The notes under the pieces are model-generated. The model saw only the letters and a list, made by a program, of their open reading frames with translations. It ran no database searches and was not told the origin of the DNA. Source: Chloroflexota bacterium (GTDB lineage Bacteria > Chloroflexota > UBA5177). Taken from it: 64,000 nt of DNA. The DNA is taken from the NCBI GenBank assembly GCA_051002135.1, contig JBPCMQ010000004.1, positions 2,095-66,094 of the forward strand, written 5' to 3'. This document shows positions 1 to 12,830 of the stretch, in pieces. Numbering within the stretch: the first letter of the stretch is position 1; every line of letters starts with the position of its first letter. The position numbers and the translations under genes were made by a program.

Positions 1-1669
1 CGGCCGACTGGCACTCGTATATGACTTGATGGAGCCGCTCCGTCCAGAGGTCGATCGGTATGTGTTGGAAGTTGTTCGAGAGCATACGTTTGCGCCAAAT
101 GATTTTCTGATCACAGCGCGGGGAATGGTGCGCCTGCATCCGCAAACCTATAACACCGGCAACGACTTCATCTACCGAGATGACTACGCACATCCCCTCG
201 ATGCTTACCTCGTCTTAACGGGCCAAAAGGACTTGGATGGAAACCTATTAACGAGTAACCCCGAGACAAGTGGACGTTATCACTCGTCATGGCTTTCGAT
301 GATGTATCCCCGCCTTTTCCTTGCGCGTCAACTCTTACGAGAGGACGGCGTCATCTTCGTGAGCGTCGATGACCACGAAGAACATGACTTACGTCTCCTG
401 ATGAACGAGATCTTCGGGGAAGAGAACTCCCTGGGCACGCTCGTGTGGCAATCAAAGAAAGGGGGTGGCGGCGACAGCGGAAATCTAGTGCAGGATAACG
501 AGTATGTTCTCTGTTATCGCGGAACCAATAACCCACATTGTCTATCGAGGGTTGAGATCGCAGCAGAAGAATTGGATAGGGTGGACGTGAAAGGGCCGTA
601 CCGAAGAGGACGGGAGCTTAATAAGTGGGGTTCTGGTTCGAGACGCGACGATCGTCCTACGATGTATTTTCCCATTCCAGGCCCCGACAGCAATAGCGTG
701 TACCCCATCCGGAATGACGGCAGCGAGGGCCGTTGGAGGAAGGGCCTCAAGAAAATGCTGGCTTTAGTGAATCGAGGCGATGTGGAGTTTGAACAAAGAC
801 CAGATGGAAGCTACATCGTATACGAAAAGATTCGATCAGCCGATCCTCGCTTGAAACCATACCGGACGTGGCTCACCGATGTGGGCACAACAGCCGATGG
901 GTCGAAGACTGTGAAGGAGTTGTTTGACGGTCGCTCCGTCTATGACTACCCGAAGCCGGTTGCGCTCCTCAAGCGTCTCATCTTCATGGGCACAAATGGT
1001 GATGATGACTTAGTTTTAGATTTCTTTGCTGGATCTTGCACTACCGCTCAGGCTGTTCTCGAACTGAACCGTGAGGATGAAGGATCAAGGCGGTTCATCT
1101 GTGTACAGGTACCTGAGCCGTCACCGCTTAAATCCGAGGCACGAAAGGCTGGTTACGGAACGCTTGCCGACGTTGGCAAAGAGCGCATCCGGCGAGTAAT
1201 GTTTCGCATGAATCAGGACAGTGCAAGTGCCCTTGACCTCAGGGAATCTGACGAGCCCGAGGACCTGGGGTTTAGGGTTCTCAAACTCGTTCAGTCGAAC
1301 CTGCGAGGCTGGAATGCAGTTGCTGCTGGTACTTCACCGACTGAATACGCTAGCCAGCTTGAGATGCTCGAAGATCCTCTCGTGCCAGGGTGGATGCCTT
1401 TGCAGGTCATCTATGAGATTGCCATTAAGGAAGGCTTGAGCCTGACGTTCGCGGCAGAAGAGGCAATCGTGGACGGCGTCACGATCTGGAACGTGACCGA
1501 TGACCAGACTGGACAGGGAATCAAAATATGCCTTGACGATGCCCTCTGCCTGGACACGGTTCGAGCTTTGGATCTGACCAAGGAGGATCGATTCATCTGC
1601 CGTGATATCGCGCTCGATGACACAGTCACGGCGAATCTCGCCCTCCAATGTCACTTGAAGACGATCTAG
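1..1669 (+). CDS. mod: Type III restriction-modification DNA methyltransferase (Mod subunit), 5'-partial: the reading frame is open to the window edge
   Basis: C-terminal FxGxG-like SAM motif 'LVLDFFAGSCTTAQAV'. Beta-class N6-adenine methyltransferase architecture, with the expected DPPY motif lying upstream of the window. Its stop (1667-1669) abuts the GTG start of the downstream res gene. Confidence 0.8.
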   Translation, partial: GRLALVYDLMEPLRPEVDRYVLEVVREHTFAPNDFLITARGMVRLHPQTYNTGNDFIYRDDYAHPLDAYLVLTGQKDLDGNLLTSNPETSGRYHSSWLSMMYPRLFLARQLLREDGVIFVSVDDHEEHDLRLLMNEIFGEENSLGTLVWQSKKGGGGDSGNLVQDNEYVLCYRGTNNPHCLSRVEIAAEELDRVDVKGPYRRGRELNKWGSGSRRDDRPTMYFPIPGPDSNSVYPIRNDGSEGRWRKGLKKMLALVNRGDVEFEQRPDGSYIVYEKIRSADPRLKPYRTWLTDVGTTADGSKTVKELFDGRSVYDYPKPVALLKRLIFMGTNGDDDLVLDFFAGSCTTAQAVLELNREDEGSRRFICVQVPEPSPLKSEARKAGYGTLADVGKERIRRVMFRMNQDSASALDLRESDEPEDLGFRVLKLVQSNLRGWNAVAAGTSPTEYASQLEMLEDPLVPGWMPLQVIYEIAIKEGLSLTFAAEEAIVDGVTIWNVTDDQTGQGIKICLDDALCLDTVRALDLTKEDRFICRDIALDDTVTANLALQCHLKTI

Positions 1670-4369
1670 GTGGCTCTGATGGAATTCAGATTTGACGCCA
1701 ACCAAGCGTTCCAGACAGAGGCGGTCGATGCAGTCGCTGACCTCTTGGATGGTCAACCCCTCGTCACACCTGATCTGACCCTTGCCCTAGGTGGCGGATT
1801 TGCCGCCGTTGGGAACCGGCTGGACTTGAGCGAGGGGACGATCCTGAACAACTTGCGGAACTTTCAGGAGCGAAAGGGCATCGAGGTAGATAAGACACTG
1901 AACACTATCGATCAAGATATCGAGACGGCTGACGGTAGGAAGCTGGTCAGCTTCCCCAACTTCTCCGTGGAAATGGAAACTGGTACCGGAAAGACTTACG
2001 TCTACATCCGAACCGTTCTCGAACTCTTCTCGCGCTATGGTCTCCGCAAGTTCATCGTGGCGGTGCCCAGTGTCGCGGTGCGGGAAGGTGTGCTCAAAAC
2101 CCTGCGCATGACGCAGCAGCATTTTCGGGAACTCTATACCAACGTTCCCTATCGGTACTACGCCTACAACTCGGAGAACTTGACGCAGATCCGGAGCTTC
2201 GCTTTGTCAGACAGTATCGAGATCATGATCATGACGCTCGATTCGTTTAACAAGGCGGGAAACGTATTTTGGCGAAGCACGGATCACTTGCAAGGCGAGA
2301 CACCGGTTCATCTCGTCCAGGCCGCTCGCCCCATCCTCACCCTTGACGAGCCGCAGAATATGGAGAGCGAAAAGAGCATCGCGGCCCTGGCTGCACTCGA
2401 TCCTCTCTTCGCTCTCCGGTACAGTGCGACCCACCGCAACGCCTACAACCTCGTGTATCGCTTAACACCCTTCGATGCCTACCGACAGGGCTTGGTGAAG
2501 CGGATCGAGGTTGCCTCGGTGGTCAAGGACGATGACTTCAATCAAGTCTTCTTGCGGCTGGAGGATATCAAGGCGCAAAAGAAGACAGTCTCCGCTCGCC
2601 TCGCGGTCCACCAACTCATGAAGGACGGCAGCGTCAAAGAGAAGGTAGTCACGGTCAAGCCTGGAGACTCGCTGGAGGACAAGACTAAACGACCGGAGTA
2701 CGCTAGCTTCGTTGTTGACGAGATCAACCCTGGTAGCGAAAGCGTGTGCTTCGCGAACGGGATCGAGATCGGGCTTGGAGAATCCCAAGGGGCTGACAAG
2801 GAAGCGGTATTCGAAGCGCAGATCCGGTACAGCATCGAAGAGCATTTCCGAAAGCAAGCTCGGCTGAAACCGCACGGCATCAAAGTCCTCTCGCTCTTCT
2901 TCATTGACCGAGTAGCGAACTACGCCTCCGAGGATGGCATTATCCGGCGTCTCTTCGATGCGCAGTTCGAGTCGATCCGGCAGCGGTATCCCGACTGGTC
3001 GGATATCGATTCGGCTTCTGTGCAAGCCGCGTACTTCGCTCAACGTCGCTCTACGGGGGGAGAGGTCATCTACGAGGACAGCACGACTGGCGCGGCAAAG
3101 AAGGACGAGGAGGCATACGACTTGATCATGAAGGACAAAGAGCGGCTACTCTCCTTCGATCAGCCGGTCTCGTTTATCTTCTCCCACTCGGCCCTCAGGG
3201 AAGGATGGGATAACCCGAACGTCTTTCAGATCTGCACATTGAACCAGACAACGTCCGAGATGAAGAAGCGCCAGGAAGTCGGTCGTGGGATGAGGCTGGC
3301 GGTGGATCAAACGGGCGAGCGTGTCTGGGACGAGCACGTCAATATTCTGACCGTCGTGGCAAACGAGAGCTACGACCGCTATGTCTCGACGCTCCAACAG
3401 GAAATCGAGGCCGACCACGGCAAATCGGGGCTGCCGCCGAGGCCGAAGGATGCGAGGAAGCGGGGAATTGCTCGTCTCCGCAAGGAGTACACGCTGCGAC
3501 CGGAGTTTCAGGAGCTATGGCAGCGGATAAGTCCCAAGACCCGATATGCGGTTCGCGTTGACACCGAGACGCTCATCCAGCAGGTGGTCGGAGACTTGGA
3601 CAAAGTTCAGATCCGTCCTCCCCAAGTCGTTGTGTCCAAGGCGCGGGTGGCGGTCGATGACGAGGATCGTCTGCATTCGATTCGGCTGACCGGTGACAAG
3701 GGCGTGCTGGATCTGAGCAAACGGCACACCCTCCCCAACGTCATCGGCATCATGACCCACCTGCTGGAATTCACCACTCCACCGATTCGTCTCAGCCGAT
3801 GCACCTTGCTTGAGATCTTTCGGCGCACGTCGAATCAGCAAGCGGCACTCTCCAACCCTCAAGAGTTTGCCGCGGTGGTGGTCCAGATCCTCAAGTCCCG
3901 CCTAGCGGATCAACTCGCCGACGGCATCCAGTACGAGAAGATCAACCAGTGGTACGAGATGACCCAGTTCGACGCCGAGATCGAGAGTTGGGAGGACCAT
4001 CTCGTGCCGGCGGACCACGCCCTCTATGACTACGTCATCTACGATTCAGCCGTCGAGCGGCAGTTTGTAGAGGATCTCGAAGGCCGTGATGACGTACGCC
4101 TCTACATCAAGCTGCCGAACTGGTTCAAGGTGCCGACTCCGGTTGGAGAGTACAACCCAGACTGGGCAATCGTGATGGAGGATCGCGACGAACACGCCGA
4201 CACGAATGGCAAGCCGCTTCTCTATCTGGTGAGAGAGACGAAGTCCACTACGAACATGGACGATCTGCGACCCGATGAGCGCAGGAAGATCATTTGCGGT
4301 GGGCGGTTCTTCAGGGAAGCTCTAGGCGTCGAGTACACCGTTGGTCCAGAAGCCGCCACACTACCATGA
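1670..4369 (+). CDS. res: Type III restriction enzyme Res subunit (SF2 helicase + PD-(D/E)xK nuclease)
   Basis: Walker A 'METGTGKTYVYI'. DEAH-like motif II 'LTLDEPQNM'. Helicase C motifs 'REGWDNPNV...QEVGRGMRL'. C-terminal nuclease motif 'YNPDWAIVMED...VRETK'. GTG start immediately after the mod stop. Confidence 0.85.
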   Translation: MALMEFRFDANQAFQTEAVDAVADLLDGQPLVTPDLTLALGGGFAAVGNRLDLSEGTILNNLRNFQERKGIEVDKTLNTIDQDIETADGRKLVSFPNFSVEMETGTGKTYVYIRTVLELFSRYGLRKFIVAVPSVAVREGVLKTLRMTQQHFRELYTNVPYRYYAYNSENLTQIRSFALSDSIEIMIMTLDSFNKAGNVFWRSTDHLQGETPVHLVQAARPILTLDEPQNMESEKSIAALAALDPLFALRYSATHRNAYNLVYRLTPFDAYRQGLVKRIEVASVVKDDDFNQVFLRLEDIKAQKKTVSARLAVHQLMKDGSVKEKVVTVKPGDSLEDKTKRPEYASFVVDEINPGSESVCFANGIEIGLGESQGADKEAVFEAQIRYSIEEHFRKQARLKPHGIKVLSLFFIDRVANYASEDGIIRRLFDAQFESIRQRYPDWSDIDSASVQAAYFAQRRSTGGEVIYEDSTTGAAKKDEEAYDLIMKDKERLLSFDQPVSFIFSHSALREGWDNPNVFQICTLNQTTSEMKKRQEVGRGMRLAVDQTGERVWDEHVNILTVVANESYDRYVSTLQQEIEADHGKSGLPPRPKDARKRGIARLRKEYTLRPEFQELWQRISPKTRYAVRVDTETLIQQVVGDLDKVQIRPPQVVVSKARVAVDDEDRLHSIRLTGDKGVLDLSKRHTLPNVIGIMTHLLEFTTPPIRLSRCTLLEIFRRTSNQQAALSNPQEFAAVVVQILKSRLADQLADGIQYEKINQWYEMTQFDAEIESWEDHLVPADHALYDYVIYDSAVERQFVEDLEGRDDVRLYIKLPNWFKVPTPVGEYNPDWAIVMEDRDEHADTNGKPLLYLVRETKSTTNMDDLRPDERRKIICGGRFFREALGVEYTVGPEAATLP

Positions 4370-4407
4370 CCGCCGTTCTGCCCCCGACCCAAAGTCTGCC
4401 GTAAAAG

Positions 4408-5703
4408 ATGACCAGAGACGACCCGACACTTCTCGGTCGAGGATTGCAGGGTAGCAGCCCTCCGCACCGTGACGATCACAAGCGGGTACTCGTGCCGCTT
4501 GAAGCCTGGGAATACAACTCGCCCTTGCTTAAGATTGAAGGGAAGAGAACGGACCTGGGACTCCTGGCAGAAGCACTCCTGTATTACGACCAGGTCTTCG
4601 TCGATATTCAAAGCGAGCACCAACTCGAAGACCTCTTGCGTTGGGCAATCGAGCGCGACCATATTAATTCGCTGCTTACCTTAATTCATGAGGGCGTGCT
4701 CAAGTTCCACTATCACGCTTTCCTCACCACTGCGGTAAGCACCGAAGGGGTTTTCCGATTACTCCATATCGAGGATACAGCGCAAGCACGAGGGGCCTCC
4801 TTCCCTGAAAAGATCATTTACCGCGCCGATTACTCGTGCCTCCACGCGAGGAAACAGAGGGCTCTCATCCAAGAAATAGAGCGGAACTACGTGGAGGCGA
4901 AGGTAGATAACTACGAACTCCCAATTGAAGACGCCAGACGAGCGTTAGGTGACCCCGAATACTGTAGCCAGTTACTTCAGACATTCATTGATGACCTGTA
5001 TCGCGGTCTCCACCTGGGCAAGCCCCCGCAGGTTTCCTGCGAAATCGAGCAAGTTAGTCCGGAGACCTACACGATCAAGTGGAATACCGACTTCACCCAG
5101 ATCACAAACATGACCTCTGGAAAGCTCGACTTTCGTCCGGACATTCCGATCATCGGTGAGGCTCACACCAACCGCTGCATCATGACTGCCATTCGCAATG
5201 GGCTGGATCTTTCTCTCGGCGATGTGATGGCTACCCTAGCTGGCAACAAACTGGTCGAGGCAAGCGAGCACTCAGGTCGAGTTAGAGAGATCATACAGGA
5301 ATTGAAGATCGAAGTGGAGTTCCCAGACGTGCGCGGACTCGTCAACTCCGGCGACATGTATCTCGACACGGTGCTAGAAATTCGGGCGAAATCGAGCAAA
5401 TTCCGAGGGTGGCTTCAGCAGGAAGGCGACAAGGATCGCAATGCGCTGTCAGCGTATCACAACGAAGTTGCGCAAGCGTCGGGCGTAGCTAAGCAAGGAG
5501 TCGCGACCTTAAAGTTATTCGGAATCCTTAGTTCAACTGGTGCCGCCGCTGCGCGGGTAGTCGATCCAACTGGCGCTGTCAGCACTGCTCTAACCGCCAC
5601 CACAGGTGTCACTAATTTTCTCGGATTCATCGGAGACCGGCTCGTGAAAGATTGGAAGCCGGTTGTGTTTGGGGACTGGGTAAAGAAGCGTCTGGACAGT
5701 TAG
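4408..5703 (+). CDS. Hypothetical protein, third gene of the type III R-M operon (no recognisable domain)
   Basis: 431-aa ORF with an ATG 38 bp after the res stop, on the same strand. Visibly lower GC than the rest of the window. No motif I can assign. Confidence 0.6.
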   Translation: MTRDDPTLLGRGLQGSSPPHRDDHKRVLVPLEAWEYNSPLLKIEGKRTDLGLLAEALLYYDQVFVDIQSEHQLEDLLRWAIERDHINSLLTLIHEGVLKFHYHAFLTTAVSTEGVFRLLHIEDTAQARGASFPEKIIYRADYSCLHARKQRALIQEIERNYVEAKVDNYELPIEDARRALGDPEYCSQLLQTFIDDLYRGLHLGKPPQVSCEIEQVSPETYTIKWNTDFTQITNMTSGKLDFRPDIPIIGEAHTNRCIMTAIRNGLDLSLGDVMATLAGNKLVEASEHSGRVREIIQELKIEVEFPDVRGLVNSGDMYLDTVLEIRAKSSKFRGWLQQEGDKDRNALSAYHNEVAQASGVAKQGVATLKLFGILSSTGAAAARVVDPTGAVSTALTATTGVTNFLGFIGDRLVKDWKPVVFGDWVKKRLDS

Positions 5704-6018
5704 GATCGGCGCATGCTCCTCCCCCAACGCATCTCCGCGTGCGCCGGCTGCTTCCTACAGAACGCCCGCTTGTCGCCCGGATTTGCCCACGCCTCGACTA
5801 CTGCCCAAGCTGCCTGCTTGCGTCGATCAGGCACTGACTTGTCACGGCGCGAAAGGGTGCTTGAAAGAGTTATCAACGTGTTTGTCTTTGCGAAATCGAA
5901 GAGCATCACGGAGACATTATCTTTTAACCACCACGCATTCACTCCGTGTAGTCAAAAATGGTGCCTTGAGTAGATAACGCTATACCCCGCCGTCCGTCCC
6001 AGCCCCTATGGTTCAGGC

Positions 6019-6132
6019 TGTCCATGACGGAGATCGTACGCGTCGCGTGCGTCTTCCCCTGCGACACGCACGGCCTGTCCATGACGGAGATCGTACGCGT
6101 CGCGTGCGTCTTCCCCTGCGACACGCACGGCC
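6019..6132. repeat. Near-perfect 57-bp tandem direct repeat, 2 copies
   Basis: 'tgtccatgacggagatcgtacgcgtcgcgtgcgtcttcccctgcgacacgcacggcc' occurs at 6019-6075 and again at 6076-6132. Each unit contains an imperfect internal inverted repeat. Confidence 0.9.
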
Positions 6133-6363
6133 ACGGGGGGTAACCTCTCACTCGCTTCAAACTGACGGTCGTATCTTGACACCTTCTATTTGTCAAGTGT
6201 TCGGCTCGACGTGCGCCGCTGGCTAAGTCGTGTCAAGCCTTGATGTGATCCCGTCTCTCACTCCGTCAATCTTTCCCATGTCAAGTTGACACGGGTACGT
6301 CTCTATGCATGGTCGTGGATTGAGCGACACTACATCAACTCACCTTCGGTGTGTCACTGAGGC

Positions 6364-6556
6364 CACGGGCGCTCGGTCCCACGGCCCGCACAGAGCCTCA
6401 GAGAGCCCGATTCATCGACCCACACGGGCACCCGGACGGCACGCCCCACGTCCTCGCGGACAGCACGGGCACTCGGTCCCACGGCCCACACGGGTCCATA
6501 AGAGCCCGATTCTACGATCCTCACGGGCACTCGGACGGCCCGGAAGTATTGACAGG
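6364..6556. repeat. Degenerate ~95-bp tandem duplication built of four 'CACGGGCRCYCGG...' half-units
   Basis: Units 6364-6463 and 6464-6556 align by eye ('cacgggcgctcggtcccacggcccgcaca...agagcccgattc...cacgggcacccggacggc'). The duplication ends in a perfect 9-bp-arm hairpin, GGAAGTATT-N8-AATACTTCC, at 6541-6566. Confidence 0.7.
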
Positions 6557-7107: not shown

Positions 7108-9684
7108 CTACGGCCAGCGCACCCTCGCGTAGTTCCAAACCTCTTCCATAGACAGCGCCACCGTTTGGTTGTTGGCTCGAATGAACAACTGCTGCCCTTT
7201 GTCGTCGGTCACAAATGCGGGACGGGGCGAAGGCTTGATGGAGACTTCGCACACCTCTTGGCCGCTCGCATTGGGGAAGGTGATGCGGATGAACGCGCTC
7301 AAGTCTTTCCCGTAGGCGTTCAGCAATAGGTTCGTTAGGTGTAGCTCGAAGCCATCGCGACCAGGCTTCTTGGTGAGCGACTCGTAGTCGTGTGCCAAAC
7401 CCAGGGCCGTCCCGATGTCGTCAACCCCGATCAGCAGGACGCCGCCTGCCACCGAGTTGAGGAAGCCGGCAACGGTCTTCACGATGACCTTCTCGAGCAC
7501 CGGATTGACCTTGTTCTCCCGCATATCCCAACGTAGGGAGGACTTGAACTCGAGTGTCTCGCTCTCTCCTCCGGCGATCAAAGCGGCCACGCCAGACGCG
7601 GGCGCGGGAGCAGGGGGCGCGGCGCCAAGGTAGGTCAACTCCCCGAGCTGGGCCGGCTGCAGCTTGTCGAATTCTTTCTGCAGAACCTTTAGGTATCGCC
7701 ATTCAATGCCGGTTAAGAGGGTCGCGTTCTCGCACCAGATCTGGGCCGCGCGGTCCTTGTGCGCAACGTCAATATCCTCTCGCCCCTTGGTCTCGATAAG
7801 ACAGTGAATCTCGTCGGCGGAAACGGCGACGAAGTCGGGCTCGTAGTACCGGAGGTTGGCGGCGGCGTCTGTGTACTCGATCGTGAAGCCGAATTGAGAG
7901 GGCATCTTGGCGAACCGGAGCACGTCGCTCGCGTCTTCGAGAAAGCCGGCAAACTGTCGTTCGAACTCGTTGTCGCAGGCAACGAGGTTGAAGACGGTCT
8001 TCGTAGCGGGTCGGGTCGGACGCGAGAAGGGGAAAGGCAAGACCTGCGAGAGCCGGCGATCGCTGAGGATGAGCTCGGGTGTCTGCTGCTCAATGACAAG
8101 GGCGCGAAGCGCTGCCGTGAAGGATTTGACGGTGACGTACTGAGCGACGCTCGTGGAGATGGCCTTGAGAATGATCGGGTCGTAGAGGTCGGCGGGCTCG
8201 CCAAAGGCGCGTTCCGCGAGAAATTCTCGTACCTTGGGGACTAAAGCCGCAAATTGAGAGGGCAGCTTGACATCTTGCGCGATCCGCTTTGCATAGTAGG
8301 AAATGACTTCCTCGGGTGTCTGGACCTCGGGTATGCTGTAGTCGCGGTCGACGACCTTCTCTAACGTGATGATGTCGTAGCCCTCGTAATGGAACTCCTT
8401 GGCGGCGGCATCGTTCTGCGTCTTGGGCAGGGGAGGGCACGTCATCTCGCGGACGTTGAGGCCCTCGATCTCCTCGGTGAGGGTCTTCTTGCGGGACAAG
8501 ATCGGACTCAGCTGAGGCATGGCTATGTCCTTGCCGAGCTTGTCTTCGTCAGGCTTGATGACGACGATCTTGACCTTGTCGCCGGTCAGATCGAAGGTTC
8601 CGAGCTCGAGCACCTCGTCACGCTCCAGCTGTTCGACGAACTCGATAAAATTCTTGTTGCCTATCACGTCAACGCGCTCTTGGTACAGATTGCCCAGGTC
8701 GCGAAACATGAGGCGAAGGCCGCGCCCCACGGTCTGCTCGGGAAGAATATTGGCCTTCGCCTTGTATGGGCGTAGGCCGACAACGACCGTGACGTTCTGG
8801 ACGTCCCACCCCTCCCGCAACATAAGCACGCTCACGATGGCATTGACGGGACTCTCAGCCTCGTCAACCTCGCGAGCGACCCGCCGGGCAATGTCAAGGT
8901 CCTTGTCTGAGACCTCTCCGGACCGTTTCGTGTGGATCACCAGAAGTCTGTGGCCTCCAAACTCGCTCGGGTACTTTGTTCGGAGATAGTCTCCCACGTC
9001 ATCGGCCTCGCTCGTGTCGTGCATCATGACGAAGAGGATCGGCGTCTTTCCGAGTGGCTCCAGCTGCTCGCGATACTCGCGCCAGCGCTCCACGGCAGCC
9101 GTCAAGTAGGCCTGGTAGCGTGTGCTGGCGACGTCGGATGGCTGTTCTCTAATACCCCTCGCGATGCCCTTCATCGGCCGCTTCACGACATTGTCAAGGA
9201 TAGCTTGCTTGAGCGGATAGTCATAGACGGTCCAGGTAAAGAGACTGCCCTTGGGGTACCGAGGCGTGGCCGAAAAATCTAGTTGGGCCGCGAGACCTCC
9301 CGGGTTGTCCACGTGGAGGCGACGGATCGCCCGGCTCCACTCGCTCTCCTCGTCGTGCGTGTGATGAGCTTCGTCGTTGATGACAAGGCAGGGAGACTTG
9401 CGCGACGCGATGCGCTCGTCGAAGTCGTCGATATCAGACATCTTCGCCGGCGGCTTCGGGCCGAGGACCGCCGTCATTGCCTCGGGTTCGCCGTCGGCGC
9501 CATTGACCGAAGACCGATCATAAATCTGCTGTATGTTCGTCAGGTAGAGCGCGCCTTCCGACCCGGCACGTTCATTTTCACCCCTGAGATAAACGTCGAC
9601 GTCCCAGAAGATTTGGAAGTCCGGCGGGATCACCGGATCGGATCGGAAGACACGGCCGGCCGCGAAGTCTAGACGGGGTGGCTA
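7108..9684 (-). pseudogene. N-terminally truncated SF2 helicase-nuclease (type III Res-like) with a C-terminal AlbA_2/Schlafen-like domain
   Basis: The frame opens only ~16 codons above a GTG at 9633. DEAH box 'LVINDEAHH' lies ~90 aa from the N-terminus and no Walker A is present. Helicase C 'LMLREGWDVQNV...QTVGRGLRL'. PD-(D/E)xK 'YEPDFVAV...IETKG'. C-terminal 'ESETLEFKSSLRWD...' is the AlbA_2 signature. Confidence 0.6.
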
Positions 9685-9781
9685 ATGTTCGTACCTAAGT
9701 GCACGTACAAGGATCCTTGTTCGGAGAGAAGCTCATGGATAATCAGCAGTCTCTCATACATCATCTGCAGGTAGGAGTCTA

Positions 9782-11503
9782 GATTTCGGCATTCTCGAGG
9801 AGGCCGAGATCGACGAGGCGCAGGAGGCCAAGCTCGGCCGCCTCTTCGCCCAGCAGTACGAGCTGATCACCCGCGAGGAGCGCCTCGATATCGTGGGCCG
9901 GGACATCGTCGACCACTTCCTCGGCCGCGGCTTCGCCGGCAAGGCCATGGTCGTCTCCATCGACAAGGCCACCGCCCTCCGCACCTACGACAAGGTCCAG
10001 AAGCACTGGCAGGCACGACTCTCCGCCAAACTAGCCCGCCTCGCGAACGATGCACTCTCTGAAGAGGAAGCAGAGCTCCTCCACGAGGAGATCGCGTGGA
10101 TGCAATCCACCGACATGGCGGTCGTCATCTCCTCCTCGCAGAACGAGATTGCCGAGATGGCGGAGCGTGGACTCGACATAACCTCGCACCGGCGGCGGAT
10201 GGTCGAGGAGGATCTCGACGAGAATTTCAAGAATCCGGCAAATCCCCTGCGGATCGCCTTTGTCTGCGCCATGTGGACCACCGGCTTCGACGTGCCCTCC
10301 TGCTCGACCATCTACCTCGACAAGCCGATGCGCAACCACTCCTTGATGCAAACCATCTCCCGCGCCAATCGCGTGTTCCCCGAGAAGAACAACGGCGTGA
10401 TCGTCGCATACGTCGACGTCTTCCGCGATCTCCAGAAGGCGCTGGCGCTCTACGCGGTCACCGGGGGCATCGGCAAGGGGGCCATCGACACTGGTGTCCT
10501 CCCCATCGAAGAGAAGGCCGTCTTGGTCGACGAGCTCCGGGACGCGGTGGACGATGCGGTCTCGTACTGCTCGAACCGAGGAGTGCTTCTTGGCGCTCTC
10601 ACCGGCCTGCAGGGGTTCGAATTCGTCCAGGCGGCCGGCGACGCCGTCGAGCAGCTGATCGTCAACGATGAGGAGAAGGCGGCATTCCTCGACCACGCCA
10701 AGCTGGTCGACCGGCTCTTCAAGGCCATCCTGCCCGATCCCAGCGCCTCCGAGTTCGGCCCGATGCGGGGGGTCCTCGTCCACCTGTCCCGCACCATCGC
10801 GGACTTCTCGCCGCGGGTCGACGTGAGCCCGGTTCTGCGTCGCGTCGAGCAGCTCCTCGACGACTCGGTTGCCGCCAAAGCCTACGTGATCCACGAAGAC
10901 CGCGCGCCCTATCAGATCGACCTCAACGACGTGGACTGGCAGGCGCTCGAGCAGACCTTCCAGCAGGGTCACAAGCGCACCGCGGCCGAGCGGCTCCGAT
11001 CAATGCTGACCACCCGCGTGATGAACCTCGCCCGCCTCAACCCGACGCGGACCGACCTCCTCGAGCGCTTCCAACGACTGATCGACGAGTACAACGCGGG
11101 CTCGAGCAACGTCGAGGAATTCTTCCAGCGGCTGATCGCGTTCACCAAGGACCTCACCGCCGAAGAGCAGCGTACCGTCGCTGAGCATCTTACCGAAGAG
11201 CAGCTCGCCGTGTACGACCTCCTGATGCGTCCCTCGCCCGAGCTGAGCGACGCCGAACAGTCGCAGGTCAAGCGGGTCGCCGAGTCGTTGCTCGACGTCC
11301 TCAAACGCGAGAAGTTGGTCCTCGACTGGCGCAAAGAGCAGCGCTCCCGCGCCTCGGTGCGGCTGACGGTCGAGGAGAAGCTGGACGAGCTGCCGGAGAC
11401 ATTCACCCGGCAGCTCTACGCACAGAAGTGCGACGTCGTCTACCAGCACGTGTTCGACAGCTACTGGGACGACGGGCAGAGTGTTTACGACCGGGTTGCA
11501 TGA
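9782..11503 (+). pseudogene. hsdR: Type I restriction enzyme HsdR, C-terminal fragment lacking the nuclease domain and helicase motifs I-II
   Basis: HsdR-specific motifs 'IVDHFLGRGFAGKAMVV' and 'LRIAFVCAMWTTGFDVPSCSTIYLDKPMRNHSLMQTISRANRVFP'. The frame opens at 9743 after a TAA. There is no start codon before 9893, and homology begins around 9782. Confidence 0.7.
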
Positions 11504-11625: not shown

Positions 11626-11934
11626 TTACGCGAGAGGCTCGCCTTCGAGTGGAATCTTGGCTTCTGTCCAGCGTATCGAGTAGCGCGCTGCGGCACGCCT
11701 AACGACTCCGTACGACGTTCGTGGATTGCTGTGCTGAATCCTGATGTGATCTTGGATTAGATCGAGGAGCACTTCGTCAACAGATTTATCGCGCCGCTCA
11801 GCCATCTCGTCGAGTTCGAGGTAGTCGACTATTGGCATCTTCAAATAGATCGCCGTATCAGTAGGCGCCGTCTTCGGACGCGCCCGCTCGGTGACGCGAA
11901 TGTATGGCTCGTGCTTGTCCGGCTCGGCGCTCAT
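11626..11934 (-). CDS. Ribbon-helix-helix antitoxin (BrnA-like) of a type II TA pair
   Basis: 102 aa. A beta-strand followed by helices 'TAIYLKMPIVDYLELDEMAERRDKSVDEVLLDLIQDH'. Its start overlaps the upstream toxin stop (ATGA, 11931-11934). Confidence 0.5.
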   Translation of the reverse strand: MSAEPDKHEPYIRVTERARPKTAPTDTAIYLKMPIVDYLELDEMAERRDKSVDEVLLDLIQDHIRIQHSNPRTSYGVVRRAAARYSIRWTEAKIPLEGEPLA

Positions 11935-12290
11935 GTCAGGCTACGCTTGAAGTCCCAGTACATACCTTCATAGTACTTACTATCGGGCTCATAGGCTGTC
12001 CATGCAAGCCAAACTCCCCGATGATCAGAAGGCACGAGTGCAGTTAGCAGAAATCGGCCCTTGCGTGTGTAGCCAAGCATTATGAGAGGCGCTCCCCGGT
12101 CTCCTTCCGAATAGCCCGTGTTGTACGCGAACTCGGCGCCGTTTGGGTCTTGATAGCACTGCAAGACCTCGGCGAATCGGACACGATGATCCCCGAGCTG
12201 AACGTGATCATCGAAGTTCGCGTCTCGCACGATCTCGTCAACGCCACCGTACCGGTCGAAGTACCAATTAGCGTCTTCCACTCCGCGCAT
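11931..12290 (-). CDS. BrnT-like toxin (DUF497 family ribonuclease)
   Basis: 119 aa. 'DHVQLGDHRVRFAEVLQCYQDP' matches the DUF497 pattern W..N..KHGV.F.EA..VF.DP, and 'GRFLLTALV...RGVWLAWTAYEPD' matches GRLL.VV.T.R..IRIISAR. Toxin-first gene order as in brnTA. Confidence 0.55.
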   Translation of the reverse strand: MRGVEDANWYFDRYGGVDEIVRDANFDDHVQLGDHRVRFAEVLQCYQDPNGAEFAYNTGYSEGDRGAPLIMLGYTRKGRFLLTALVPSDHRGVWLAWTAYEPDSKYYEGMYWDFKRSLT

Positions 12291-12714: not shown

Positions 12715-12830
12715 GAGGTGCAGCTAGGGGAGCGCGTTTTTCGCGCTGAGAGTGTGGCTGAGGCCGCAGACCCTTGAACCTGATCCGGGTAATTCCGGCG
12801 TAGGGAAGACTCCAAGCGACTTTCCGCTCC
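12715..12830 (+). promoter_or_regulatory. TPP (THI-box) riboswitch
   Basis: 'ctaGGGGaGC...GCTGAGAgtgtggctgaggccgcagACCCTTGAACCTGATCCGGGTAATTCCGGCGTAGGGAAG' is a near-consensus THI element, sitting directly upstream of the 12841 operon. Confidence 0.85.

Follow-up and report, generated by a model that had tools for sequence, protein, structure and literature searches.

Restriction-modification (R-M) operons are known to house cargo genes, the anticodon nuclease PrrC of the EcoprrI type I locus and RloC-type genes being examples of cargo embedded in this way, and Cas1 homologues are also found outside CRISPR-cas loci as Cas1-solo genes. Among type III R-M systems the best reference for the locus described here is EcoP15I, a system in which mod precedes res. 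The methyltransferase Mod carries a target-recognition region and S-adenosylmethionine (AdoMet) motif I, and Res combines superfamily 2 helicase motifs with a C-terminal PD-(D/E)xK domain. In beta-class N6-adenine methyltransferases the catalytic loop is formed by motif IV. The locus lies at the left end of a 64,000-nucleotide (nt) stretch of DNA from a Chloroflexota bacterium (GTDB lineage UBA5177; GenBank assembly GCA_051002135.1, contig JBPCMQ010000004.1, positions 2,095 to 66,094), which is referred to as the window throughout. It consists of three open reading frames (ORFs) on the plus strand, at 26 (or 2) to 1669, 1670 to 4369 (899 amino acids, aa) and 4408 to 5703 (431 aa). A preliminary description had taken them for a type III R-M operon with a third gene of unrecognised function. 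The first two genes do resemble those of EcoP15I in their order, in their tight abutment and in the features of Mod and Res named above, but the operon is not intact, as a Cas1-like domain stands in place of the N-terminal ~120 residues of Mod and of the DPP of motif IV. With moderate confidence the locus is seen as a broken mod-res pair in an acquired block of DNA, followed by an autonomous cargo gene that is possibly a membrane-acting defence gene. The anatomical part of this picture is held with high confidence, while the defensive role and membrane mechanism of the third gene, taken by themselves, are tentative. The features of the coupled pair and of the gene that follows are these.

1 to 145, plus strand: Cas1-like domain (its last 48 codons) of a Cas1-Mod ORF that starts outside the window (Pfam, PADLOC, alignment with the Cas1-like protein P0076).
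143 to 151, plus strand: fusion junction Q48-T49-Y50, where Cas1 homology stops at HPQ and Mod homology begins at YNTGNDF, DPP being absent.
149 to 1669, plus strand: N-terminally truncated type III mod (PADLOC MTase_III, alignment with the full-length Mod P0041).
1670 to 4369, plus strand: full-length type III res, 899 aa (PADLOC REase_III, Pfam, EcoP15I alignment).
4408 to 5703, plus strand: gene for a 431-aa protein of an uncharacterised family (homologues, AlphaFold2 model, no structural match).

The first ORF is open from base 2 and extends beyond the left edge of the window. Its residues 1–48 (GRLALVYDLMEPLRPEVDRYV...RLHPQ) correspond to a Cas1 C-terminus, matching positions 225–272 of 283 in Pfam Cas_Cas1 (PF01867; E 4.5e-6), and the same N-terminal segment is also matched by PADLOC Cas1. 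The complete gene was recovered from contig QHBP01000123.1 of a second assembly (GCA_003244175.1; locus L001), which holds the same locus with 3 of 6465 nt different, as a single 968-aa ORF at L001:3527-6433 with Pfam Cas1 and N6_N4_Mtase domains. The stand-alone Cas1-like protein P0076 (45% identity) is homologous up to ...RLHPQ and runs ~100 residues further, homology to the full-length Mod P0041 (49% identity) begins at YNTGNDF, which is residue 124 of P0041 and follows directly on IDPP, and EcoP15I Mod (PDB 4ZCF) aligns just from residue ~123. Across the junction (cgc ctg cat ccg caa acc tat aac acc ggc) the fusion therefore reads HPQTYNTG where relatives carry IDPPYNTG, and the catalytic motif IV (DPPY/F) is missing from it. 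The Mod-derived part amounts to ~507 residues, compared to 611–705 aa in stand-alone relatives, such that ~120 N-terminal residues are missing. It covers positions 126–609 of 621 in the PADLOC MTase_III profile PDLC03634 (E 3.3e-120) and retains both AdoMet motif I (DFFAGSCTT) and the central target-recognition region. On the account of the lost DPP of motif IV the fused Mod should not methylate, and judging from its sequence the R-M system has most likely been inactivated recently and is not working. It counts against this conclusion that the presumed inactivity of Mod is deduced from the loss of DPP. The annotation at NCBI calls the fusion simply "Cas1" and carries no pseudogene flag.

Res, by comparison with EcoP15I, is complete. 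The full-length protein is matched by PADLOC REase_III (PDLC03647) at E 2.9e-238 and by Pfam ResIII and RE_endonuc (E 2.2e-34), and it aligns to residues 5–942 of the 970 of EcoP15I Res. The Walker A motif (METGTGKT), DEPQ and QEVGRGMRL (QxxGRxxR) are all present, as is a C-terminal PD...ExK endonuclease domain (PD...ETK). The stop codon of mod (TAG, 1667–1669) directly abuts the GTG at 1670, an arrangement previously taken to mean that mod and res are translationally coupled. The abutment is real; the true start of res may however be the ATG at 1679, which is preceded by AGGTGG at 1668–1673, and the "mod" in question is not a whole gene. In the two closest type III relatives the gap between mod and res is 6–10 nt, and the two genes are tightly linked here whichever start applies. 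The R-M part is thus ordinary, and its value is one of caution, in that an apparent coupled mod-res operon proves to contain a mod that is truncated and joined to a Cas1-like gene.

The distribution of the fusion was evaluated by a database search with the 968-aa protein. The same fusion was found in one further NCBI assembly (MGI8824131.1), while the other 40 matches were stand-alone proteins, 37 of them Mods of 611–705 aa and 3 of them Cas1-like proteins of 542–595 aa. The Cas1-Mod fusion is accordingly a singleton among all database hits. The Cas1-like relatives P0076, P0079 and P0080 are solo proteins of 540–600 aa with differing extra domains, and at the loci inspected neither cas2 nor type III genes lay beside them; adjacency of such relatives to type III R-M genes was looked for and none showed it. 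The upstream partner resembles the Cas1-solo genes in that it has a Cas1 domain (PF01867) and in that its relatives stand alone with no cas2 nearby, and differs from them in that the Cas1 C-terminus is replaced by the truncated Mod; 145 nt of the Cas1-like gene fall within the window. No cas2 was called in L001, and no CRISPR-Cas adaptation module (Cas1, Cas2 and array) was recognised there. In the sequence upstream of the window (L001:1-4764) the Cas1-like part is seen to have an N-terminal CxxC...CxxxC segment resembling a zinc ribbon, and is preceded by a 336-aa gene of unknown function and by divergently oriented ParB_N and Mom-like genes.

How the fusion arose was considered together with the condition of the DNA to its right, where two further restriction genes are found.

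7108 to 9633, minus strand: Res-like gene, 841 aa, without the N-terminal helicase lobe (Pfam ResIII positions 91–163 of 164 only, RE_endonuc, and a C-terminal SLFN_AlbA_2 domain, Schlafen/AlbA_2).
9893 to 11503, plus strand: C-terminal half of a type I HsdR, 536 aa (Pfam T1R_D3-like and T1RH-like_C, with no HSDR_N or ResIII lobe).

The two are arranged head-to-head across a 260-nt gap. Weak Mod remnants were detected at 9605–9776 on the minus strand, just upstream of the Res-like gene, by tblastn with P0041, and 7108–9776 has the appearance of another type III module of which most has been deleted. Neither hsdM nor hsdS was seen near the HsdR fragment. As both of these downstream restriction genes are truncated, the locus is regarded as a decaying defence island, and as the surrounding restriction genes are damaged in the same manner as mod, the Cas1-Mod fusion is most likely a rearrangement scar within that island. 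In such an event a break within motif IV of mod would have placed the rest of the gene in frame behind an upstream gene of the Cas1-solo kind, with res left complete. The possibility that the R-M block had simply been inserted into a Cas1 gene was rejected: tblastn found neither a Cas1 3' remainder nor a Mod 5' part elsewhere in the 64-kb window, and hence no matching pieces.

Two other accounts of the junction were weighed. The fusion may be a functional new protein in which a Cas1-like integrase or nuclease is tethered to the recognition and AdoMet parts of Mod and works with Res, perhaps also with the third gene. In its favour, the reading frame runs uninterrupted through the junction over 968 codons, the target-recognition region and motif I are kept, Res is intact, and the gene is seen in two assemblies and is not flagged as a pseudogene at NCBI. 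This account is nevertheless most improbable, given that one third of random deletions would be in frame anyway, that the singleton has so far no divergent genome with the same architecture to accompany it, that its Cas1-like relatives are solo and adjoin no type III genes, and that truncation of neighbouring restriction genes makes rearrangement and decay the local norm. Alternatively the join may be a chimera created during metagenome assembly, the real mod being intact. Both sources are metagenome-assembled genomes and the GC content shifts within ~150 nt of the junction; against this, two assemblies deposited separately, with a 3-nt substitution between them elsewhere, show the same junction, the reading frame continues across the join with no repeat seen at it in the sequence read, and the missing parts of mod and of Cas1 occur nowhere else in the window. 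A chimera is on these grounds very unlikely, although shared reads behind both assemblies, if that is their origin, would leave room for an artefact of assembly and so weigh against a rearrangement scar. The differences between the window and L001 consist of just three adjacent bases (3482–3484, within res), which suggests two separate consensus sequences of one population.

The third gene begins after a gap of 38 nt (4370–4407), and the earlier account of it as a 431-aa ORF on the same strand, 38 bp after res and with no recognisable domain, was confirmed, as the protein belongs to no family in Pfam, PADLOC or NCBIfam. An alternative start, TTG at 4444, is the one annotated at NCBI (PZS07660.1). 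Since no terminator-like or promoter-like site was seen in the 38-nt gap, the gene is presumably read through from res and co-transcribed with it. A word-indexed search returned 39 full-length homologues of 408–473 aa, and an exhaustive profile search 703 cluster representatives at E <= 1e-3, 164 of these at E <= 1e-30. Nearly all full-length representatives measure 400–480 aa and share a single architecture, typically of ~420 aa. Three parts of the alignment are conserved: an N-terminal motif (HxxxLVPxExWxYxSPxL...DxGLLAEALxYYD), a C-terminal block (VEFPDIRxLVNxG...KFRxWLQxExxRDRDAIIAYHNEVA), and a Gly/Ala-rich hydrophobic stretch followed by an invariant DWKPVVFGxW. D49, E55, D267, K281, H351 and E353 are among the invariant positions. 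In the window this last part is the following feature.

5491 to 5610, plus strand: hydrophobic Gly/Ala/Ser/Thr-rich stretch, in most of the family a glycine zipper, residues 362–401 of the 431-aa protein, followed by the invariant W-K-P-V-V-F-G-x-W (Pfam matches in homologues, hydropathy).

The genomic context of the family was examined at ~46 independent loci, of which 40 come from GTDB species representatives and five are metagenomic or NCBI loci, the window being the remaining one. The 118 flanking proteins were scanned in one batch against Pfam and PADLOC, which replaced single-sequence phmmer searches of low sensitivity. The family is spread patchily across at least 10 phyla, and among the ~46 loci a type III res stands beside the family gene only in the window. 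The most frequent neighbour family accounted for at most 3 of the 118 immediate neighbours, and in the absence of any shared neighbour family the gene is taken to have no obligate partner. R-M genes of four different types were found near the family gene at roughly 6 of the 46 loci, as a raw count. Consistent linkage of homologues to type III R-M, which had been suggested as a check, was thus not observed. The R-M loci other than the window are listed below, with "ORF" for the family member.

L005 to L008, same strand: HsdM, KilA-N, HsdS, ORF, 149 aa, 169 aa, HsdR, SocA/Panacea, the start of the ORF overlapping hsdS by 11 nt.
L030, same strand: HsdR, HsdM, HsdS, 224 aa, 132 aa, ORF.
L016, same strand: Rep, methyltransferase, PLD nuclease, 241 aa, ORF, 128 aa, integrase.
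L040, same strand: ORF, then a type IIG enzyme 57 nt downstream.
L043: type III-like methyltransferase and KilA-N gene 5.7 kb from the ORF.

The type I operon at L005:4286-14362 lies near dnaA/dnaN in an abundant freshwater organism, is found on 24 contigs, and contains four embedded genes (KilA-N, the family member and the 149-aa and 169-aa genes) as well as a downstream gene with helix-turn-helix (HTH) and SocA/Panacea domains.

The two closest type III relatives of the window have full-length genes throughout, with Mods of 630 and 650 aa and Res proteins of 892 and 897 aa. In one of them res is followed by PDDEXK_3 and integrase genes and in the other by genes for a 156-aa protein and SocA_Panacea. 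As the closest relatives carry unrelated genes after res, this position is thus a variable slot. The best reading of the 431-aa gene is that it is not a subunit of the type III system and instead represents an autonomous, patchily spread chromosomal family whose member here would occupy the variable cargo slot. The preliminary description had considered a working type III operon in which the co-transcribed third gene serves as a dedicated partner, be it a specificity factor, a controller, an anti-restriction control or an abortive-infection partner. The three genes do lie on one strand within one compositional block, the last of them across a 38-nt gap with no terminator-like site, and Res is intact. 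A dedicated partner is nonetheless very improbable: Mod is without the DPP of motif IV and ~120 N-terminal residues, 1 of ~46 loci has an adjoining type III res and no other homologue does, unrelated genes follow res in the two closest type III relatives, and the Pfam scan found no HTH or other regulator domain in the protein. What stands of the proposed defence linkage is that type I, type II-like and type IIG R-M operons contain or adjoin homologues in the same orientation; a fixed R-M partner was not among the findings.

An anti-restriction role was considered as well. The family was not found in 50,697 phage records, in IMG/VR viral contigs or in 72,556 plasmids, which argues against such a role borne by mobile elements, and the protein shows neither the Pfam matches nor the phage or plasmid carriage of anti-restriction proteins of the ArdA, Ocr or KlcA type. 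The placement of the gene is closer to that of PrrC and RloC-type cargo. Like these, it is a stand-alone gene on the same strand at the end of, or in other genomes inside, an R-M operon, in relatives the slot after res is variable, and in L005 the family member stands between hsdS and hsdR in a prrC-like position. Unlike these, the family has no sequence or structural similarity to PrrC or RloC and ends in a glycine-zipper stretch, and most of its members lie outside R-M operons.

Structure prediction and fold comparison, which had been proposed as a route to the function of the protein, yielded a confident model and no structural relative. The AlphaFold2 model built on the family alignment had a mean predicted local distance difference test score (pLDDT) of 79 and a predicted template modelling (TM) score of 0.82. 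Residues ~25–295 were mostly above pLDDT 90, with one block near residue 125 averaging 73. Foldseek comparison of the model with the PDB and BFVD gave nothing with E <0.1 or TM >0.3, and a profile search of PDB sequences gave chance hits only (E >0.3). On current evidence the modelled alpha/beta body of ~340 residues therefore appears to have a fold for which neither solved nor viral structures offer a detectable relative. The segment D267...(D/N)280-K281-x-x-E284 was considered as a PD-(D/E)xK motif and rejected, as the segment is helical in the model and the motif needs beta strands. No ATPase or nuclease motifs and no N-terminus resembling a signal peptide were found in the 431-aa protein.

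The C-terminal stretch recalls known glycine-zipper modules (PF13488, PF05433 and Gly-zipper_YMGG, PF13441). A GxxxG-rich hydrophobic stretch at the C-terminus is matched by Pfam Gly-zipper_Omp in 15 of the 39 members and by Rick_17kDa_Anti in 12 (best E 4e-5), and in 36 of the 39 the most hydrophobic 17-residue segment lies in or near the zipper (positions ~340–382). The known modules differ in being short and often part of lipoproteins, while the stretch described here is the tail of a ~340-residue body of cytosolic appearance; the window copy, moreover, reaches none of their models. A literature search on glycine zippers within defence islands brought up no mention of the family. Based on this layout the 431-aa protein may be a single-gene defence, abortive-infection or addiction protein that is anchored in or inserts into the membrane, in which the cytosolic body would sense a trigger and the glycine-zipper tail would perturb the membrane. 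Carried along with R-M cassettes, the gene would then provide a second line of defence. In a more specific version, rather unlikely as it stands, the ~420-aa family would constitute a new system of abortive infection or defence made of a single gene, with a sensor body and a pore-forming zipper tail; it would be preferentially captured in R-M operons and would back up restriction, for example by firing, as PrrC does, once the R-M enzyme has been disabled by DNA damage or by anti-restriction factors of a phage.

Several observations weigh against a defensive, membrane-acting protein. About 40 of the 46 loci have no R-M gene close by, and many neighbours are housekeeping genes (ThiC, SecA, SHMT, urocanase). 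PADLOC-DB v2.0.0 run over the 39 members gave four marginal hits only, at E 8e-4 or worse. The zipper of the window copy is degenerate, with 7 Gly as opposed to 9–17 in most members and without a glycine-zipper match in Pfam, a condition that its nearest relatives share, and the hydrophobic hairpin region is modelled at pLDDT <50. The main rival is accordingly a membrane-associated protein with no defence role, for instance in envelope or stress physiology, whose proximity to R-M genes is incidental. The housekeeping neighbours, the lack of a PADLOC match and the scarcity of nearby R-M genes in the raw count all favour it. Against it, four independent loci besides the window have the gene in the same orientation as R-M operons of different types that contain or directly adjoin it, in one case with the 11-nt overlap with hsdS; toxin-antitoxin, integrase, TniQ or IS200 genes are neighbours at other loci; and the family is patchily spread over at least 10 phyla with some copies that look split or frameshifted. 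We judge this rival to be unlikely, though not strongly so.

Among the neighbours at other loci are PemK or MazE/PIN pairs and a transposase with integrase and DUF2726, and elsewhere a YgjP-like gene, TniQ, IS200, a TIR effector and PDC-S35. At six GTDB loci (L035, L038, L039, L041, L049 and L050) the family member appears split into 2–3 ORFs, for which either decay into a pseudogene or frameshift errors of long-read assembly may be responsible. The family has carriers in culture, Cellvibrio fibrivorans BE190 and Marinobacterium stanieri DSM 7027 (the copy of the second looking split or frameshifted in the assembly), and the defence hypothesis is therefore directly testable. The third gene is in this respect the useful lead from the locus, as a compact family with a confident model and no solved or viral relative that recurs in R-M operons of four types. 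If the hypothesis holds, the family would add a new sensor fold to the membrane-acting abortive-infection proteins and would be a further example of R-M operons acting as landing pads for second-line defences.

Base composition was used to delimit the block that carries the three genes. The GC content of 146–5703 is 0.552, as opposed to 0.617 for 12300–64000 (standard deviation 0.021 over 1-kb intervals). Individual 1-kb intervals range over 0.53–0.58 within 1–6000 and from 12 kb on have a mean of 0.616 (standard deviation 0.021) and a minimum of 0.581. The lower GC content reported earlier for 1–5700 is thus borne out (55.2% versus 61.7%), while the 65–70% given for the DNA elsewhere is too high, the remainder of the window being at 58–66%. 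A two-change-point likelihood fit, performed on the window extended by 4.7 kb of upstream sequence from the second assembly, placed the low-GC block at approximately 6 to 6356 of the window with a likelihood-ratio statistic (twice the difference in log-likelihood) of 66, the fitted GC contents being 0.598 to the left, 0.553 within the block and 0.617 to the right. GC content at third codon positions (GC3) was 0.59 in mod, 0.72 in res and 0.62 in the third gene, compared to 0.70–0.82 in housekeeping genes sampled from 12.8–64 kb. The GC profile is therefore not uniform, and GC3 is lowest in mod and the third gene. The block departs from its surroundings in composition, which is consistent with horizontal acquisition, as was originally suggested. 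In the proposed history, ~146–6350 would be a horizontally acquired block of lower GC content within the decaying defence island, which would reach to ~12.3 kb. The right end of the block lies beyond the third gene.

5704 to 6356, no strand: non-coding tail of the low-GC block (change-point fit, tandem repeat).

This tail contains the only tandem repeat near the locus, a perfect duplication at 6018–6131 with a 57-bp unit in 2.0 copies at 100% identity. A CRISPR array was ruled out at this position, as the two 57-bp copies abut without a spacer. Immediately beyond the block, a G+C-rich non-coding stretch at 6364–6542 without an Rfam match contains two imperfect direct repeats, one of 28 nt (93% identity) and one of 42 nt (86%), with a spacing of ~100 nt. 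At the far end of the island, two small ORFs at 11626–12290 on the minus strand, of 119 aa and then 102 aa, overlap by 4 nt in a layout resembling that of toxin-antitoxin pairs and have no match in Pfam. The housekeeping DNA to the right of the island starts at a thiamine pyrophosphate (TPP) riboswitch (12716–12823, plus strand; Rfam RF00059, 67 bits), which precedes an AIR-synthase-related gene, an ABC transporter and an NMT1/THI5-like gene.

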